Sequence record: OZ035790.1
DNA: 64,000 nucleotides
DNA from: Felixounavirus LF110P4
Direction: 5' to 3' (one strand)
The notes beneath the pieces were generated by a model. It was given only the letters and a program-made list of their open reading frames with translations. It ran no database searches and was not told where the DNA came from. Position 1 is the stretch's first letter; each line of letters starts with the position of its first letter. This document shows positions 12,616-58,994 of the stretch, piece after piece. The position numbers were made by a program, and so were the translations under genes.

Positions 12616-12842
12616 ACATTACTGCAAAAAATTATAAAAAGCAAGTTGACAATGCACTTGACAAGGTGTTAATCTTTGCGAAGTGGGTTTTTACTTAAAA
12701 GGTTACTTAACAGTTTAACTATACAGATACTTTAAAACTCTTAAAAGATTATTTAATAGCTTTTAAAAAGCTTTAAAGTATAACGTATAGAATACGTTAA
12801 GATAAAAGATTAAAACTTAATAGTTACTTAAAAGAGGCTTAC

Positions 12843-13265
12843 ATGCAGAAAATGTTTGTTCACCCAGACATAGCTGACTTTGTTAGAGCTTTGCAGAAGT
12901 TGGAAGAACTTGACATTGCTGCTCAACGGGAATATGCTCACCATCACAGGAGAATGGTTGATATACAACATGAAATAGAGTTGTCTGAAAACTATGAAGA
13001 TGACTTAAAATGCTCTGTATTTGAGCATATGAAAGATGTTGCTACAGCAAGACGTAAAGCTAAAGACACAGTTGCTTTACTAGATTCTCTTAAAAAGAGG
13101 TTGCAAAGTGGTACAGACCTGTGTAATCTAGCGTCACTGATTAACGATGTTGAAACTTCTTGGGATAGGCACTATTATCCACGTTCTGAAAAGACACTTG
13201 ACTTTTCTTCATCAGAAAACTTAAAATGTTCTAGAAAGAAACTTAACCAACTGAGAGAGAAATAA
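12843..13265 (+). CDS. hypothetical protein
   Basis: 140 aa, first gene of plus-strand block. Confidence 0.45.
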   Translation: MQKMFVHPDIADFVRALQKLEELDIAAQREYAHHHRRMVDIQHEIELSENYEDDLKCSVFEHMKDVATARRKAKDTVALLDSLKKRLQSGTDLCNLASLINDVETSWDRHYYPRSEKTLDFSSSENLKCSRKKLNQLREK

Positions 13266-15093: not shown

Positions 15094-17071
15094 AGGTCGT
15101 AAATTGAAAGAGGCTGGTCAGTTTGTTGGTCATTGCGCATGTCCACGTTGTGGTTCATCAGATGCTGGTTCAATCTATCATCATGACGATGATTCTTATT
15201 CAATGACTTGCTTTAGTTGTAACAAAGGTTTCCCAGAGTGGGATTTTGATAAAGGACAAATCGTGAGCACTTATTCTACTGGTTCAGACAATAAAAACCG
15301 TACTTTCCGTGGAATGGATTTAGACGATGTAAAAGAAAACCTTGAAGCAATGGACTTAAAAGACAGGAAGATTCCTGCAAAAGTTCTTGAGCGATTGGGT
15401 ATCAAGGTTGACATTGACAGTGACGGTGAAATTGACGCACATTTCTACCCAACTTACAAACGCAATGAAGATGGCAAGCTAGAGCATGTTGGCTACCGTG
15501 TTCGGCACCGTTACCCAGAAGACCATCCAAAAGAGCACCTACGTGGTAAGTTAAAAGACTTTTCTGGTGGTGTTGGAGACATTAAAGGTGAGCTGGCAAT
15601 GTTCGGTTCATGGATTGCTCCAGAAGGTGGTAACCGTCTATTCATCTGGGAAGGTGAGATGGAATGTGCGACAGCAATCTATATGACTTCTCTTGCGATT
15701 AAAGACAAGTCTCGTCGTAAGAATTACTGTCACGTATCTGTTCCATCAGGTGCAAACATCAAGTCTATCAAAGATAACTATCAGTACATTACATCATTTG
15801 ATGAAATTTACTTGTGCTTTGATAACGATGAAGCAGGTGCTAAAGCCACTAAAGAGGCTGCTGGTATCCTACCTATTGAGAAGGTTCGTTTATTCCAGTA
15901 TCCAGAAGGTGTAAAAGACCTTAACGAATGGTGGACAAAGTTCTATAAAGAGAAAGACACAGTTCTGGAAGGATTTAAGCAGCGTATCTACAATGCACCT
16001 CGTTACTGTCCTGCTGGTATCAAGAACTTTGCAGACGGTTTTGAGGCAATGAAGAATCGTGGTCAGATTCCATTGATTCCTTTCCCAGAATCTTTCGGGG
16101 ATTTGAACAGACTGACTTATGGTGGTTACGGTTTAGGCGAGATTACGACTATTGCAGCACCATCTTCAGTAGGTAAGTCAGCTTACACTCGTGAGATGAT
16201 TTATTCAGCTTGGAAAGAGACTGAATACAACATCGGTGTAATTCCGGTAGAGGATACCTATGAAGAGTTGATGGAGATGCTCTGTGCAATCCACCTGAGC
16301 AAGCAGATTTCTGAGATTCCTTATGATGAACGAGATTGGGATGAATTAAAGGGAGCACACGCCGAGCTTTCAAAAGGTCGTCGCATTCATATCGTTGACC
16401 ATCAAGGGGCAATTGACCAAGATAACCTGCTGGAGTTTGTTGACTATCTTGTTAATAGTTTAGACTGTAAGATTATCATTCTTGACCCTATTACGTTGGC
16501 TCTGTCACGTTCTGATACGGATGAAGAAGAAGTCTTGTCTGAGTTATTGCGTCGTTGCAAACGCTACCAGTATGCGCAGGTAAACGTATGTCACGTTCGT
16601 AAGAGTGCAGGTGGTCAGAAAGCTAACTCTGAAGGTGGGGATATCTCTGAAGAGGATATCAAGGGTTCTGGTGCGTATTTCCAGATTTCCATGAATAATA
16701 TTTTGTTAATGCGTAACAAGGTTGACCCAGACCCTGTTAAGAAAAACTTGACAAAAATCAAGTTAACTAAGTGTCGTCGTCATGGTAAGTCAACAGGTAT
16801 TGCTGGTCATACTTGGTACAATCCAGATACAGGTCGTCTTATCAAAGCTTCTGGATGTGGTGTTGACATTGATGGTGCAGCAGAAAATATTCGTCAACAG
16901 TTTGGTATTGGCGAAGCTGAAGACCATTATGATGACTCTTTGCCACATTATGAGGATGAAGTGTTTGACCGTGAGACTGGTGAAGTCTATACTGAAGAGC
17001 AGCGTCAAAGCTCAACGATTCCACCTGTATTAAGTGAGGATGCAGATGACTGCCCGTTCGAAACTGAGTGA
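15080..17071 (+). CDS. DNA primase/helicase (T7 gp4-like)
   Basis: N-terminal Cys4 zinc motif (CACPRCGSSD ... CFSCNKG), TOPRIM-like region, Walker A APSSVGKS in C-terminal DnaB-like helicase domain. Confidence 0.8.
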   Translation: MLMSKGRKLKEAGQFVGHCACPRCGSSDAGSIYHHDDDSYSMTCFSCNKGFPEWDFDKGQIVSTYSTGSDNKNRTFRGMDLDDVKENLEAMDLKDRKIPAKVLERLGIKVDIDSDGEIDAHFYPTYKRNEDGKLEHVGYRVRHRYPEDHPKEHLRGKLKDFSGGVGDIKGELAMFGSWIAPEGGNRLFIWEGEMECATAIYMTSLAIKDKSRRKNYCHVSVPSGANIKSIKDNYQYITSFDEIYLCFDNDEAGAKATKEAAGILPIEKVRLFQYPEGVKDLNEWWTKFYKEKDTVLEGFKQRIYNAPRYCPAGIKNFADGFEAMKNRGQIPLIPFPESFGDLNRLTYGGYGLGEITTIAAPSSVGKSAYTREMIYSAWKETEYNIGVIPVEDTYEELMEMLCAIHLSKQISEIPYDERDWDELKGAHAELSKGRRIHIVDHQGAIDQDNLLEFVDYLVNSLDCKIIILDPITLALSRSDTDEEEVLSELLRRCKRYQYAQVNVCHVRKSAGGQKANSEGGDISEEDIKGSGAYFQISMNNILLMRNKVDPDPVKKNLTKIKLTKCRRHGKSTGIAGHTWYNPDTGRLIKASGCGVDIDGAAENIRQQFGIGEAEDHYDDSLPHYEDEVFDRETGEVYTEEQRQSSTIPPVLSEDADDCPFETE

Positions 17072-45733: not shown

Positions 45734-45967
45734 ATGCTTACAACCGTTTACCTCATCCTTTCTATTTGTAACGGTCATTCATGCGATTTTAAAGGGCTTG
45801 AAGAGTTTACAGGAAGTAAAGAAAATGCTATTCAAGTTTGCCAGATAGCAAGGAAAGACTATCCCGCTAGTGATGATATACAATGTTACTTTAAGACAGA
45901 AGATGACGACGGAATCTATTTTGACAGTGTTGACGGTAAATATGAAATTATCATTGAAAAAGACTAG
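45734..45967 (+). CDS. hypothetical protein
   Basis: 77 aa ORF. Confidence 0.4.
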   Translation: MLTTVYLILSICNGHSCDFKGLEEFTGSKENAIQVCQIARKDYPASDDIQCYFKTEDDDGIYFDSVDGKYEIIIEKD

Positions 45968-46056
45968 ACAAGCCCAATAAAAGTCTGTAAATTGTCAATC
46001 AACGGGGAGGGAATGACCTTCCCCACTAAATAAAGTCCTAAACTGGAGTTATCAAG

Positions 46057-46320
46057 ATGGAAAACGTAGAATTAACCACACTTTTACAAATTGCAACTGA
46101 CAAAGAAGATGTAGCACTGTTTCACCGTATCGAAAGCGATTTATTCAATGGTGAAATCATCAAAGAATCTTATGAAGTTGTCGGATTCAAAGATGGTAAA
46201 GCGTTTGGCTTTTTTGACCTCGACAAAGGCAACGCTGTCACAAAGTATGATGTTGTATCTTGTGAGATTCTTACAAAATACAACGAAAAAAGGCTTGCAA
46301 CATACGCCAACATACAGTAA
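46057..46320 (+). CDS. hypothetical protein
   Basis: 87 aa; variant of the conserved leader upstream. Confidence 0.4.
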   Translation: MENVELTTLLQIATDKEDVALFHRIESDLFNGEIIKESYEVVGFKDGKAFGFFDLDKGNAVTKYDVVSCEILTKYNEKRLATYANIQ

Positions 46321-46386
46321 ATTACTAATCAACGGGAGGCGATAACCTCCCCACTAAATAAAACCCTTAAACTAGGAGATTCAAAA

Positions 46387-46635
46387 ATGGCAACTATCCG
46401 CGCTACTGTCAATGCCTATGGCTGTTATACTCTGGACGTTAAATTTGATATTGGTGGAACTGATGAGTGTTTTTCATTAGTGAAGACAGTTATCAAACAA
46501 GTTATTCCAGATTATAACCCTACTGATGACTTCTGGAAAGATGCTGTAAAAGAGGCATTAAACGACGAGCATCACTATCATTACTGGGGTGACTTGATTG
46601 TTTCCCTGTACTACAATAAACAAGGTTACAACTAA
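46387..46635 (+). CDS. hypothetical protein
   Basis: 82 aa; conserved leader CCCTTAAACTAGGAGATTCAAAAATG upstream. Confidence 0.4.
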   Translation: MATIRATVNAYGCYTLDVKFDIGGTDECFSLVKTVIKQVIPDYNPTDDFWKDAVKEALNDEHHYHYWGDLIVSLYYNKQGYN

Positions 46636-46673
46636 TCGACGCAACGGGGCTAAATAGCCCCAGATACCTCAAC

Positions 46674-46699
46674 AGCCCCTATTTAAAGGGGCTTTTTTA
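46674..46699 (+). terminator. rho-independent terminator
   Basis: AGCCCCTatttaaaGGGGCT hairpin followed by TTTTTT at end of plus-strand block. Confidence 0.6.
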
Positions 46700-48290
46700 C
46701 GTCTATTGAATCCTTATACAATCCCTTTCCAGAATCTTATCAGACCTTAAAAGCAATAACTCTATAGTCTACTCTATAACCTCTTATCAAATCAACTTAA
46801 ATAAAAGCCAATAACCCCCAGAAAGGGGATGGCCCATTTAAACGCTCTATAAAGCTCTATAACAGCCTTATCAACCTAACTTAAGGGATTGCATTAATCA
46901 ACCTTAAAAAGCTCTTTACAGGGCTTTATAGAGGCTTAAAAGAATCTTATAAGGGTGTAAGCTTATAGGCTGGTTAGTATCTTGTGAATGGTTAAACAAC
47001 CCCCTTGCTAGTCACTAAAAAGCATGTTATAGGGGCTATAAAGTTACTTCAAAGTTACGTAAAAGAGGCTATAAAGTTACGTAAATGCTAGCCCCCTTAA
47101 CATTTTCTTAACATTTTCTTAACAATTTCTTAACAAACCCTACATAGTTATGCTTGTTAGCAACTTGTTAGCACCTTGTTAAATCTCTGTTAAGACCACG
47201 TAAAAGCCTTGTAAGAGTCTTTGACATAGCCTTAAAAGCTCCTGTAAAGCCCTATAAAGAGCTATCTGTACAGTTGGGGGTAGATACTAGGGAGAGCCTT
47301 AAAAGAGCCTATAAAGAGCTATAGAGAGCTTTTAAGAGGTATGTTTAATAGTTCACTAAGAAAGGAAAGGGAACGGTAAGAAAAGAGATAGTGACCATGT
47401 TAATAGCTTGTTAAAAAGATTAAACACTTGTTAGAGGCTTGTTAATTATCTTAACAAAATAACTCTTTAAAATTAACTTGTTAGCTCTTGTTAGTCATCT
47501 GTTAAGATTCTGTAAAGCCTATTCAGCACTTGTTAGAAATCTGTTACAGCCTTGTTAGTTCTGTTAAGAATCTGTTAAGACCTTTGAAGAGTTGTTAAGA
47601 GCTTGAGAGAGTTGTTAAGAAATTGTTAAGGATATTTTAAAATTTTGCAAAGTACTTGTAAGGGAGCTGTTAAGGGCTACCAAGCAGATATACATCCTAA
47701 TCAGATATTTTTGAGTTCCTTCAAAGACCCTAAAAAATGACTTGATAGTCCTATTTTATAAAAATTTTAAGATTCTGAATAATTACCTATACAGTCTTTT
47801 AAAAATACAGGTAATAACAGGCTTAGAAGATACCTTGTTAGTACCGTGTTAGACCTTGTGAGATAAGGTCTGTAAAGATATTCCTGTTAAGTTTGTTAAA
47901 ACAGTCTATATAGAGGCTTAGTAATACCTAGTGAACACCTATAGAGGGTATCATAGCTGACATAGAGATTAAGAGGTGTATAGGAGCTTCTAAGAGGGTG
48001 TAGAGAGATGGTTAAGGTGATTGTATAGGCTGTTAAGAAGGCTTGTTAGAGGGCTAGTTAGAAGGGTTATACAGAGGGCTATTAAGACCACTAGATAGTT
48101 ACTAAGATACTATATAGTACTATATAACTATATAGAGAGTAAGATTAAGAAGGTTGTTAAGAAGGGTAGATATTTTGTTCACATATAATGGTGACCCAGA
48201 GGTTGGGACAACCGATAAAATTTTATAAAAAATATAAATTTCGTAAATTTTACTCAATAAAAAGCCCCCAATTAAGGAGGCTCTTAAGAT
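46700..48290. repeat. ORF-free iteron-rich region (about 1.6 kb)
   Basis: No ORF of 60 aa or more on either strand; more than 25 copies of TTGTTAG / CTGTTAAG-type motifs (dense 47100-47640), CTATAAAG(A)GCT and TATATAG repeats. Confidence 0.7.
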
Positions 48291-48293
48291 ATT

Positions 48294-48887
48294 TTAAATC
48301 AGTGTTTCCAGAACTGTTTTTAGGGATGACTTAGTTGTCTGATAAAAATGAGTAAATCCATTGTTGTTATCGAATATCTGCATCATGATATCATCTCCCT
48401 TGATTGGGTACACTCGGATATCATAGTGAAACCCATTAAAGACAGCAGAACCATTGCAGAATACACTAAAATCATCCACTGAGATATACTCTTCATGTCC
48501 TGTGATTTTTATACAGATACCTTTGCTCGGTCTCTTAGGGTTGATATCTTCCATCACAGACATATTCTGCCCACCAAGAGATACCATAGTGACCACTTTA
48601 CGGTTCTTCTGTTTGAAGTACATCTTAACTTTCTGTAAAGTGTCTTCATAGAACGGATAAGACCTTTCTACAAAGATTCCTTCAAGTGGCTCTTTACCAT
48701 TTTCAACTTCTCTGTTATGCCGTACTGCAAAGATAATTTGTTCGAACCAGTCAAGATTTTCTTCGGAGAGTGCTTCTCGAACATCACTCCAGTCAAGTAC
48801 TAGGTAGTTACCTTCAACTTCTTTTAAGTTATCTTTTTCCATAGCTATCACACCATTATCGTAAAACTTGGTAGGCTGGTACTGCAA
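48294..48887 (-). CDS. hypothetical protein
   Basis: 197 aa, last gene of minus-strand block. Confidence 0.45.
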   Translation of the reverse strand: MQYQPTKFYDNGVIAMEKDNLKEVEGNYLVLDWSDVREALSEENLDWFEQIIFAVRHNREVENGKEPLEGIFVERSYPFYEDTLQKVKMYFKQKNRKVVTMVSLGGQNMSVMEDINPKRPSKGICIKITGHEEYISVDDFSVFCNGSAVFNGFHYDIRVYPIKGDDIMMQIFDNNNGFTHFYQTTKSSLKTVLETLI

Positions 48888-56062: not shown

Positions 56063-56290
56063 GGCAGACCTACAGCTTTAAGTAAGATGGTACAGTAATC
56101 CATACAACAAGTCAAGAACTATTGCAAGTTAAAAAAGTTGTTGACAAAGTACTTGACAAGGTGTAGGCTTATAAATACTTAGAAGATAACTTAAAAGGTT
56201 CCTCTAAAAAGGCTATTTAAACAGATATCTTTCTGGATATCTATCTTTTATCTTAAAAGCCTTTTAAGAGGTCTTATAAGAGGCATACCA

Positions 56291-58324: not shown

Positions 58325-58401
58325 CTCTGTTTAGCTCAGCTTGGTAGAGCGTTCCGTTTGGGGCGGTAAGGCCGGAGGTTCAAGTCCTCCAACAGAGACC
58401 A
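58325..58401 (+). tRNA. tRNA-Pro (anticodon UGG)
   Basis: Manual cloverleaf: acceptor CTCTGTT/AACAGAG, T-arm GGAGGttcaagtCCTCC, anticodon loop TTTGGGG, CCA encoded. Confidence 0.6.
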
Positions 58402-58408
58402 AATTAAT

Positions 58409-58486
58409 GTTCCAGTAGACAAAATGGTAAAGTCACCACTCTTTCAAAGTGGATATTTGAGGGTTCAAATCCCTTCTGGAACGCCA
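58409..58486 (+). tRNA. tRNA-Glu (UUC)
   Basis: Acceptor GTTCCAG/CTGGAAC, anticodon stem CCACT/AGTGG, loop CTTTCAA, T-loop TTCAAAT. Confidence 0.6.
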
Positions 58487-58493
58487 GTTTTGA

Positions 58494-58565
58494 CAGAAGA
58501 CCAATTACAGCAAACTTAATCTACTCATCTGAAAGTTAATCGGACAAAGAAGATATTTGGTCTGG
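58494..58565 (+). ncRNA. candidate structured RNA element 1 (bulged closing stem CAGAAGACCAA/TTGGTCTGG)
   Basis: 5' CAGAAGACCAATTACAGCAA and 3' TTGGTCTGG inverted repeat; member of a 4-copy family with covarying stem. Confidence 0.35.
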
Positions 58566-58576
58566 TCATTAAGAAT

Positions 58577-58653
58577 TGCGGGTATAGAGAAAGGGCGTCT
58601 CACATGTCTCATTAGCATGGTATCGGCAGGTTCGACTCCTGCACCCGCCTCCA
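58577..58653 (+). tRNA. tRNA with CAU anticodon (Met/fMet/Ile2 type)
   Basis: T-arm GCAGGttcgactCCTGC, acceptor TGCGGGT/ACCCGCC with 1-72 mismatch, anticodon loop CTCATTA; structure partly irregular. Confidence 0.45.
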
Positions 58654-58659
58654 AATTTA

Positions 58660-58724
58660 CAGAAGACCGTTTACAGCAATATTTATTAAGTTTTTAGCGG
58701 AAAAAATTGAAAGATACGGTCTGG
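58660..58724 (+). ncRNA. candidate structured RNA element 2
   Basis: 5' CAGAAGACCGTTTACAGCAA and 3' ACGGTCTGG; stem covaries (CGT/ACG versus CAA/TTG) relative to element 1. Confidence 0.35.
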
Positions 58725-58737
58725 TAATACTAAACAT

Positions 58738-58814
58738 GGTTAGGAAGCACATAAGGTATGTGCGGTCGCCTGTTAAGCGAATGGCACAGGGTTCGAATCC
58801 CTGACTAACCGCCA
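58738..58814 (+). tRNA. tRNA-Asn (GUU)
   Basis: D-stem GCAC/GTGC, anticodon loop CTGTTAA, T-arm CAGGGttcgaatCCCTG, CCA encoded. Confidence 0.6.
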
Positions 58815-58823
58815 AATTTAAAT

Positions 58824-58911
58824 GTGTCGTTATCCCGTAGATGGTAGCGGTGGGGACTGTAAATCCCTTGTCATTGAGACTCGGTAGGTTCGACTCCTAC
58901 ACGGCACACCA
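58824..58911 (+). tRNA. tRNA-Tyr (GUA), class II
   Basis: 88 nt with long variable arm; anticodon stem-loop GGGGActgtaaaTCCCT; T-arm GTAGGttcgactCCTAC. Confidence 0.6.
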
Positions 58912-58916
58912 ATAAA

Positions 58917-58994
58917 GGTTATGTAGTTTAATTTGGTTAAAATACTCCCCTGTCACGGGAGATGATGAGGGTTCAAATCCCTTCGTAACCGCCA
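58917..58994 (+). tRNA. tRNA-Asp (GUC)
   Basis: Anticodon stem-loop CTCCCctgtcacGGGAG; T-loop TTCAAAT; CCA encoded. Confidence 0.65.

Follow-up and report, generated by a model that had tools for sequence, protein, structure and literature searches.

The 1.6-kb gene-free stretch at positions 46700-48290 of the window, by which we mean the whole 64,000-nucleotide stretch of DNA analyzed here (record OZ035790.1), is very probably the terminal region of a linear Felixounavirus genome, present in its concatemer-junction or assembly-collapsed form, with the direct terminal repeat (DTR) predicted at 47091-47681. The repeat is 591 bp long, occurs as a single copy in the window, starts with GCCCCCTTAACATTTT and ends with CTGTTAAGGGCTACC. 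Both its identity and its position are assigned by homology to mapped genome ends in relatives. A 1.75-kb query spanning the locus matched 255 phage records at 60-93% identity, and 254 of these are Felix O1-type myoviruses (Felixounavirus and relatives) with hosts in Escherichia, Salmonella, Shigella and Citrobacter. The top matches were Felixounavirus LF82P9 (93%) and ASO1A (92%), and Felix O1 matched at 90%. By sequence homology, the source of the window is therefore a Felixounavirus genome, expected to be ~86-89 kb long. A sequence-only reading of the stretch had listed a packaging or terminal-repeat role among several candidates, and for the core of the region, which is homologous to the mapped Felixounavirus DTR, that candidate was correct.

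The evidence for the DTR comes from where the genomes of relatives begin and end. In a more sensitive search, several database records were found to begin or end in the region at an identical nucleotide; NBEco004 and H12, for example, share a start base. Three relatives carry an exact duplication at both record ends that is homologous to 47091-47681: phage D4 (PP886228; 581 bp), SeKF_63 (OR863361; 613 bp) and Erwinia phage M7 (HQ728263; 444 bp). The D4 and SeKF_63 repeats map to 47091-47681, start with GCCCCCTTAACATTTT and end with GTTAAGGGCTACC. The genome announcement of D4 and H12 states that these phages have DTRs as determined by PhageTerm (records PP886228 and PP952733), and PhageTerm also gave a 613-bp DTR for the Felix O1-like phage Ro111lw.

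For UAB_Phi87, a 608-bp DTR was determined from Bal31-sensitive restriction fragments and run-off sequencing, and the sequence printed in Fig. S1B of that paper begins with AACATTTTCTTAACAATT and ends with GGGATGTTAAGGGCTACCAA (PMC4837284). This repeat lies at 15150-15757 in the UAB_Phi87 record and is the homolog of window positions ~47099-47683. SpeI sites at 13014 and 19582 flank it, and the end fragments they predict fall within ~3% of the published 2819 and 4322 bp. The GenBank record itself (JN225449) carries a different, 542-bp duplication at its ends, which maps to the tRNA cluster (window 61893-62434). We considered this duplication as the DTR and rejected it: the DTR printed in the paper is the repeat region, and the duplication is an assembly overlap because 87603 - 542 + 608 = 87669, which is the published genome size. 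The ends of the record were likewise rejected as termini, because with them SpeI should yield fragments of ~1.1 kb and >9.6 kb and not of 2.8 and 4.3 kb.

The same boundaries are used in a second genus. In the Kolesnikvirus M7, the 444-bp repeat starts with TTAGCCAC and ends 2 nt into a AAGCAGATATACA box, and both repeat ends are homologous to the Felixounavirus boundaries. The records of Roscha1, Hena2 and Prophecy start within 2-3 nt of the M7 repeat start, and the UAB_Phi87 run-off end also finishes 2 nt into the AAGCAGATATACA box. Short DTRs have been suggested for Kolesnikvirus by PhageTerm. Independent records of two genera thus start and end at homologous nucleotides, within 2-10 nt, as expected of fixed, sequence-defined boundaries that are not permuted. 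The DTRs of UAB_Phi87 (608 bp), Ro111lw (613 bp), D4 (581 bp), SeKF_63 (613 bp) and M7 (444 bp) and the predicted repeat of the window are homologous, occupy the same syntenic place and share a start (TAGCCC..TTAACA), an end (the boundary between ..GGGCTACC and AAGCAGATATACA) and a length class. Compared with the known DTRs of Felixounavirus, the window differs at strain level only (85-93% identity), with one additional 11-bp unit at the left edge relative to D4. Terminase phylogeny agrees with packaging type (PMC4837284), and TerL homology has been applied in the same way (PMC11984208).

The DTR of the genus, with its sequence, had been published before, and several database records had been opened at it; the main identity of the element was therefore already known. 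In the papers that could be searched we found no description of the internal architecture of the DTR, that is, of its helical phasing, whole-unit insertions and deletions (indels), core and spacer conservation, inverted repeats and cross-genus box. The phasing, the whole-unit indels, the boundary and internal inverted repeats and the cross-genus box, described below, are modest, testable additions.

The repeats were quantified as counts in 46700-48290 against the remaining 62.4 kb of the window. The region holds 35 copies of the pentamer TGTTA (28 plus-strand, 7 minus-strand), against 91 in the rest of the window, a 12-fold enrichment. Longer units are CTTGTTAG (9 copies against 0), CTGTTAAG (7 against 3) and CTATAAAG (5 against 4). 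The sequence-only reading had placed the densest packing of short repeats at 47100-47640, and 25 of the 35 TGTTA/TAACA units do fall within 47098-47668; the other blocks it named are also present, CTATAAAG(A)GCT at 47228-47340 and TATATAG at 48108-48136.

These units are periodic. Base autocorrelation over the whole 1.6 kb was 0.39, 0.34 and 0.33 at lags of 11, 22 and 32, respectively, compared with ~0.27 in coding controls, and in a sliding-window periodicity score the stretch was the strongest of the 64 kb, ~6 standard deviations above the mean. The ~10.5-11-bp period extends beyond the center to cover the entire 1.6 kb. In the right-hand TGTTA array, phase coherence reached R = 0.84 at a period of 10.30 bp (99th percentile of the null, 0.66). 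Most units are spaced by 11 bp, and occasional steps of 9, 10, 20 or 31 bp hold the coherence at 10.3-10.45 bp over ~27 turns. Because the spacing is coherent at this period, the TGTTA cores are predicted to remain on one face of B-form DNA. The same phasing, 10.3-10.45 bp, was found in seven genomes: the window, D4, SeKF_63, UAB_Phi87, Felix O1, Mordin and the right half of M7.

Conservation follows the same units. Within the genus, 85-94% of window residues are conserved across most of the region, and 86-94% in the arrays that flank the DTR. Ten genomes allowed identity to be measured both in the non-coding DNA (76-91%) and at third codon positions of the flanking genes (58-84%), and in nine of them the non-coding value was the higher. 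TGTTA cores are conserved at 0.93-0.97, compared with 0.78-0.86 in the spacers beside them. Lengths of 11 bp (15 events), 22 bp (8) and 10 bp (4) dominate among indels of more than 4 bp, with multiples of three not in excess; thus, the arrays change by whole units. With conserved cores, helical phasing and whole-unit indels, the proposal in the sequence-only reading of an array of sites for a phage DNA-binding protein is plausible as far as the sites are concerned; for the protein itself, no candidate was identified.

Outside Felixounavirus, an ORF-free gap (no open reading frame) of 1.1-1.6 kb lies at the same convergent junction in phiEa21-4 (Kolesnikvirus), Mordin (Mooglevirus) and Pectobacterium phage Arno18. 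Periodicity of ~11 bp and TGTTA/TAACA units are present in phiEa21-4 and Mordin, and Arno18 shows weak periodicity with a period closer to 12 bp. Kolesnikvirus and Felixounavirus have the TGTTAAG units within the repeat in common. The unit of the left flank differs, being TTCTAAG or TTCTAAAC in phiEa21-4, with an 11-bp period, and CTnTAAAG in Felixounavirus. The flank units thus diverge while the period is kept.

The part of the region best conserved between genera is a block at 47611-47652 (plus strand), GTTGTTAAGAAATTGTTAAGGATATTTTAAAATTTTGCAAAG, a candidate terminase recognition element. It is near-invariant in four lineages, Felixounavirus, Mooglevirus (Mordin), Kolesnikvirus (phiEa21-4 and M7) and Pectobacterium phage Arno18, and is the sole part of the region matched by blastn in Mooglevirus, Kolesnikvirus and Arno18. 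Downstream of it, just outside the right DTR boundary, lies the AAGCAGATATACA box (47682-47694, plus strand). In all recovered loci (>30 from Felixounavirus and Mooglevirus plus two from Kolesnikvirus), TGCAAAG stands exactly 29 nt before AAGCAGATATACA; the search for these loci required both motifs, so that the fixed 29-nt spacing is its only independent result. An independent alignment recovered the AAGCAGATATACA box in FelixO1, Mordin and phiEa21-4 and a diverged version in Arno18. When viral contigs were scanned with the boundary pattern, eight matches lay in unrelated sequence beyond Felix-like and phiEa21-4-like phages; the five that were inspected had no repeat arrays, and these candidate distant relatives were rejected as chance matches.

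The two edges of the DTR bear inverted copies of one motif, TAGCCCCCTTAACA and TGTTAAGGGCTA. The left boundary motif, TAGCCCCCTTAACA (47089-47102, plus strand), is kept as TAGCC.C.TT.ACA in FelixO1, ASO1A, Mordin and phiEa21-4, and the M7 and Roscha1 records start there. Its inverted counterpart, the right boundary motif, reads TGTTAAGGGCTACC on the plus strand (47668-47681). Just inside the ends of the DTR is a perfect 19-bp inverted repeat, CTTAACAATTTCTTAACAA, with its left arm at 47118-47136 and its right arm at 47612-47630, inside the cross-genus block; it scored 20, whereas shuffled sequence gave a mean of 7.3 and a maximum of 12. M7 has an inverted repeat of different sequence (TTAACATCTCTGCAACATTCT) at the same places that is also significant, a covariation-like pattern. 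Such inverted symmetry, seen in the boundary motifs and in the 19-bp repeat alike, is compatible with a protein that would meet the same site, in opposite orientations, at the two edges.

Between its boundary motifs, the DTR is a succession of arrays. At the left edge (47096-47139), four 11-bp units CTTAACATTTT, which read TGTTAAG on the minus strand, are placed at 47098, 47109, 47120 and 47131. Tandem Repeats Finder reports this array with a period of 11, 3.6 copies and 96% matches, and its copy number varies across genomes by 11- and 22-bp indels. Four forward units (CTTGTTAG, CTTGTTAA and CTGTTAAG; 47153-47195, plus strand), also at 11-bp spacing, point away from the four reverse units. The central block (47196-47340, plus strand) consists of direct repeat families of CTnTAAAG-type units (CTTAAAAG, CTGTAAAG, CTATAAAG and CTATAGAG), with tandem repeats at 47293-47342. 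A non-repetitive segment follows at 47341-47395 (plus strand; ~85% conserved), the right two-thirds of which, from ~47355, are purine-rich (…CTAAGAAAGGAAAGGGAACGGTAAGAAAAGAGATAGTGACC). The right-hand TGTTA array (47396-47681, plus strand) completes the DTR with 16 forward units and 1 reverse unit, placed on a single helix face by their phase coherence.

Short-repeat arrays continue outside the DTR on both sides. The left subterminal array (46700-47090), which would lie inside the right physical end of the genome, is built of 10-11-bp units, many of them reversed (CTCTATAA, CTTTACAG, CTTTATAG and CTTAAAAG), with ~4 copies of AAAGTTACGTA at 47040-47085, by the boundary. Its autocorrelation peaks at lags 11, 22 and 33, and it holds inverted copies of the central block of the DTR (46910-46942 against 47231-47263, 82% complementary). 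On the other side, an AT-rich, repeat-poor segment adjoins the DTR (47695-47830; 89-92% conserved) and contains an imperfect hairpin, TTACCTATACAG...ATACAGGTAA. Beyond it, the right subterminal array (47831-48215, plus strand), which would lie inside the left physical end, has nearly all of its units forward (CTTGTTAG, CTGTTAAG, CTATAGAG, GGCTTGTTAGAG and TACTATATAG), a period of ~11.7 bp and 12- or 24-bp indels at 48051.

The region lies at a junction of convergent transcription. As the sequence-only reading had noted, no ORF of at least 60 aa is present on either strand; this holds from 46672 to 48294, where the largest ORFs are 45-48 aa. Plus-strand genes stop at 46635 and minus-strand genes begin at 48294. 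A putative intrinsic terminator closes each gene block. That of the rightward block (46674-46703, plus strand) has a hairpin at 46674-46693, the stem-loop AGCCCCTATTTAAAGGGGCT, followed by a T-run, and a terminator is annotated at the homologous site in ASO1A. That of the leftward block (48255-48279, minus strand) has a hairpin at 48279-48265 and is annotated at the homologous site in ASO1A and Mordin. Both terminator-like hairpins point inward, into the gene-free stretch. Four small ORFs in the region (31-45 aa; the 48-aa ORF at 48188-48334 was outside this set) were intact in only 2-8 of 23 aligned relatives. Database records annotate "hypothetical proteins" of 30-73 aa within the repeat arrays (gp32 of phiEa21-4; small coding sequences of D4, SeKF_63 and UAB_Phi87; window 48120-48257). 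These annotated genes are probably spurious, because their equivalents in the window are not conserved as ORFs.

In the virion, the DTR would be present once at each end of the genome; sequence to the left, as far as 47090, would then be sub-terminal at the right genome end and sequence to the right, starting with 47682, sub-terminal at the left end. The flanking gene blocks would be transcribed toward the ends and halt at the terminators before the repeats. Replication would yield head-to-tail concatemers with one DTR per junction. The terminase would then recognize both DTR boundaries, for which the candidate elements are (i) the inverted motifs TAGCCC..TTAACA and TGTTAAGGGCTA, (ii) the 19-bp inverted repeat and (iii) the block at 47611-47652 together with AAGCAGATATACA. 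It may cut or nick opposite strands at the two boundaries, ~590 bp apart, and fill-in or strand-displacement synthesis would duplicate the DTR, so that each daughter end receives a full copy. The phased units (TGTTA-type in the DTR; CTnTAAAG-, TATAG- and TGTTA-type in the flanks) most likely provide weak binding sites, arrayed on one side of the helix, on which a packaging or end-processing nucleoprotein complex would assemble, formed by a small-terminase-like or other phage DNA-binding protein. We infer both the cutting mechanism and the array binding by analogy with short-DTR phages of the T7 type.

The comparison with T7 bears on this mechanism. The T7 junction was measured for comparison: CCTAAAG units recur there every 13 bp, both within the 160-bp terminal repeat and next to it. 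Like the T7 concatemer junction, the region in the window combines a short, exact, non-permuted DTR with non-coding junction DNA and arrays of a 7-8-bp, TAAAG-ending unit, and its fixed-period short units flank and enter the terminal repeat as those of T7 do. The flanking arrays of T7 were reportedly termed SRL and SRR by Dunn and Studier in 1983. Terminase cuts with duplication of the repeat are presumed to be shared by the two systems. T7 is nonetheless an unrelated lineage, a podovirus with its own RNA polymerase, and we claim no sequence homology. The period here is ~10.5-11 bp and not 13 bp, and the region spans 1.6 kb, whereas the T7 arrays cover ~0.2 kb per side. The T7 junction also holds the promoters A0, phiOL and phiOR, and promoters were not found in the junction of the window.

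Processing of the T7 junction needs a promoter or pause site of the phage RNA polymerase. An 11-mer in the window, ATCTGTTACAG (47539-47549), is identical to T7 161-171, immediately after the T7 terminal repeat, a segment that contains the class II RNA-polymerase pause signal ATCTGTT. We rejected the 11-mer as a T7-type pause site since it is not conserved in UAB_Phi87, and the match is probably a coincidence. The junction of the window thus showed neither an excess of promoters nor a pause site shared with T7 and conserved in UAB_Phi87. Felix O1 encodes no RNA polymerase (PMC3185647).

Several points weigh against the terminal-repeat reading or against a packaging role for its arrays. The ends of this particular phage would be placed through homology at 85-93% identity, and the positions obtained vary by 2-10 nt with the method (left, 47089, 47091 or 47099; right, 47681 or 47683). 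The published SpeI fragment sizes of UAB_Phi87 deviate from prediction by 76 and 111 bp. Neither a small terminase nor another DNA-binding protein was identified among the ten flanking genes with Pfam and PHROG, and the terminase gene lies outside the window. The seven phased genomes are related and not independent, so that shared ancestry accounts for part of the conserved phasing. Intrinsic DNA curvature was considered as a consequence of the period and rejected: a wedge model with dinucleotide parameters gave an ordinary mean of 11.0 (genome, 9.9 +/- 5.4) and usual end-to-end ratios, and because the modeled curvature is unremarkable the periodicity is left without a demonstrated physical consequence. 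Finally, we know of no settled function for the T7 junction arrays.

The same repeats could instead serve as sites for a phage or host protein whose role is not packaging but, for example, end protection or tethering, titration of a regulator or control of DNA entry, with the termini incidental. The conserved cores on one helix face would suit such a protein, and CTTAAAAG-type units are found as well in the 5' leaders that follow two strong early promoters (12640-12840 and 56138-56290), so that the motif extends beyond the genome ends. Tandem 10-11-bp direct repeats are, moreover, the binding mode of winged-helix regulators (PhoB, OmpR, CpxR) and of ParR-type proteins. We regard a non-packaging role as unlikely, however: none of the ten flanking genes supplied a candidate protein, the unrelated short-DTR phage T7 has similar junction arrays, and the placement of the best-conserved elements, right at the DTR boundaries, speaks for end processing. 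An extended form of array binding, which we hold to be quite doubtful, would make the whole 1.6 kb (~150 helical turns) a platform for a long one-sided nucleoprotein filament, telomere- or centromere-like, that a phage protein would form. Such a filament would organize end recognition, DTR duplication or end protection in place of a simple terminase cut site, and the CTTAAAAG-type units of the early-gene leaders might be further targets of its protein. The resemblance to the parC/ParR centromere of plasmid R1 and to Pho boxes, namely tandem 10-11-bp direct repeats on one helix face, is a resemblance only. The period fits a ParR/parC-type centromere, but 0 of the 10 neighboring genes matched a family linked to partition or otherwise informative, no parM/parR-like or regulator genes lie in the vicinity, and the phage, which is strictly lytic, has a much longer array. 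It is improbable that only the DTR boundaries matter and that the flank arrays, lacking any function, arose through replication slippage and recombination near the ends. Copy number does shift by whole units of 11 or 22 bp, and the left-flank units differ by genus (CTnTAAAG in Felixounavirus, TTCTAAG in phiEa21-4), as slippage would have it. Yet conservation of the flanks within the genus (86-94%) is above that of third codon positions in neighboring genes, and an ORF-free, ~11-bp-periodic stretch of 1.1-1.6 kb has been kept in Felixounavirus, Mordin and phiEa21-4 (the Arno18 gap being weakly periodic, at ~12 bp).

Two further candidates of the sequence-only reading, a replication origin and a long non-coding RNA, gained no support. 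An origin, with the repeats as initiator iterons, would account for a long non-coding stretch that is dense in direct repeats and has AT-rich patches at 47740-47800 and 48215-48260, and T7 has secondary origins near its ends. Iteron origins such as those of phage lambda (ori), P1 (oriR) and plasmids share with the region clustered direct repeats in non-coding DNA. Those origins, however, typically have few iterons, of 17-22 bp, at or in an initiator gene that is accompanied by DnaA boxes and an unwinding element. None of these features was found here: the units are 10-11 bp, very numerous and spread over ~150 helical turns, which makes the label "iteron" misleading, and the AT-rich patches are not specific to origins. 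Matches to the DnaA box are at chance (91 in the whole window against 94 expected, with three one-mismatch matches in the region), no initiator-like gene is present among the ten flanking genes, and literature searches returned no description of an origin for the genus. The GC-skew analysis suggested as a check is confounded by gene orientation, since convergent transcription explains the skew maximum, or turning point, at this locus. An origin in or at the region is thus very improbable. A long non-coding RNA or small peptides encoded by the region are barely conceivable. The 1.6 kb holds no annotated genes, and some records do annotate small ORFs of 30-48 aa there, but no Rfam family matched (the one sub-threshold match, E = 0.43 and 24 bits against a gathering threshold of 55, lies on a terminator), promoter-like sites are at chance (10 against 7.9 +/- 3.4 expected), inward terminators on both sides stop incoming transcription, and the tested small ORFs are intact in 2-8 of 23 genomes, with indels that show no triplet bias.

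Salmonella typing, biocontrol and therapy all make wide use of Felix O1-type phages. Many of their database records have been opened at arbitrary points, and some carry assembly overlaps that mimic terminal repeats. Taking 47091-47681 as the true terminal repeat would fix the genome map and explain a gene-free gap that has been filled with spurious small ORFs. Work on packaging or engineering could draw on the boundary inverted repeats, the cross-genus box and the helically phased TGTTA array as candidate cis-elements. For the question of the T7 arrays, a second system that is unrelated and has cleaner phasing could also be of help, an incremental and not a surprising contribution.

The ten genes that flank the region had no significant Pfam match (one, far below threshold, was to a domain of unknown function), and all belong to PHROG families of unknown function. 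No recognizable small terminase is annotated in UAB_Phi87; immediately upstream of its large terminase gene lies a gene for an acidic protein of just 66 aa that looks helical. A common tandem promoter module, TTGACAA.G.ACTTGACAAGGTGT, is present at both junctions of divergent transcription in the window (12640-12840 and 56138-56290). The leader behind it, 120-170 nt long, abounds in CTTAAAAG, CTTATAAG and CTTTTAAG, which are like the units of the terminal arrays; the last leader unit overlaps the ribosome-binding site (CTTAAAAGAGGCTTACATG). Upstream of the gene-free region, intergenic modules are repeated between small genes at 45960-46056 and 46320-46386, each with a hairpin, CAACGGG(G)AGG...CCTCCCCAC, and then TAAATAAA and a ribosome-binding site. 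These modules cross-match in BLAST comparisons with relatives and are similar to intergenic repeats of 57 bp that have been described in Felix O1. The window also contains a cluster of 26 tRNA genes at 58325-63585, all on the plus strand.

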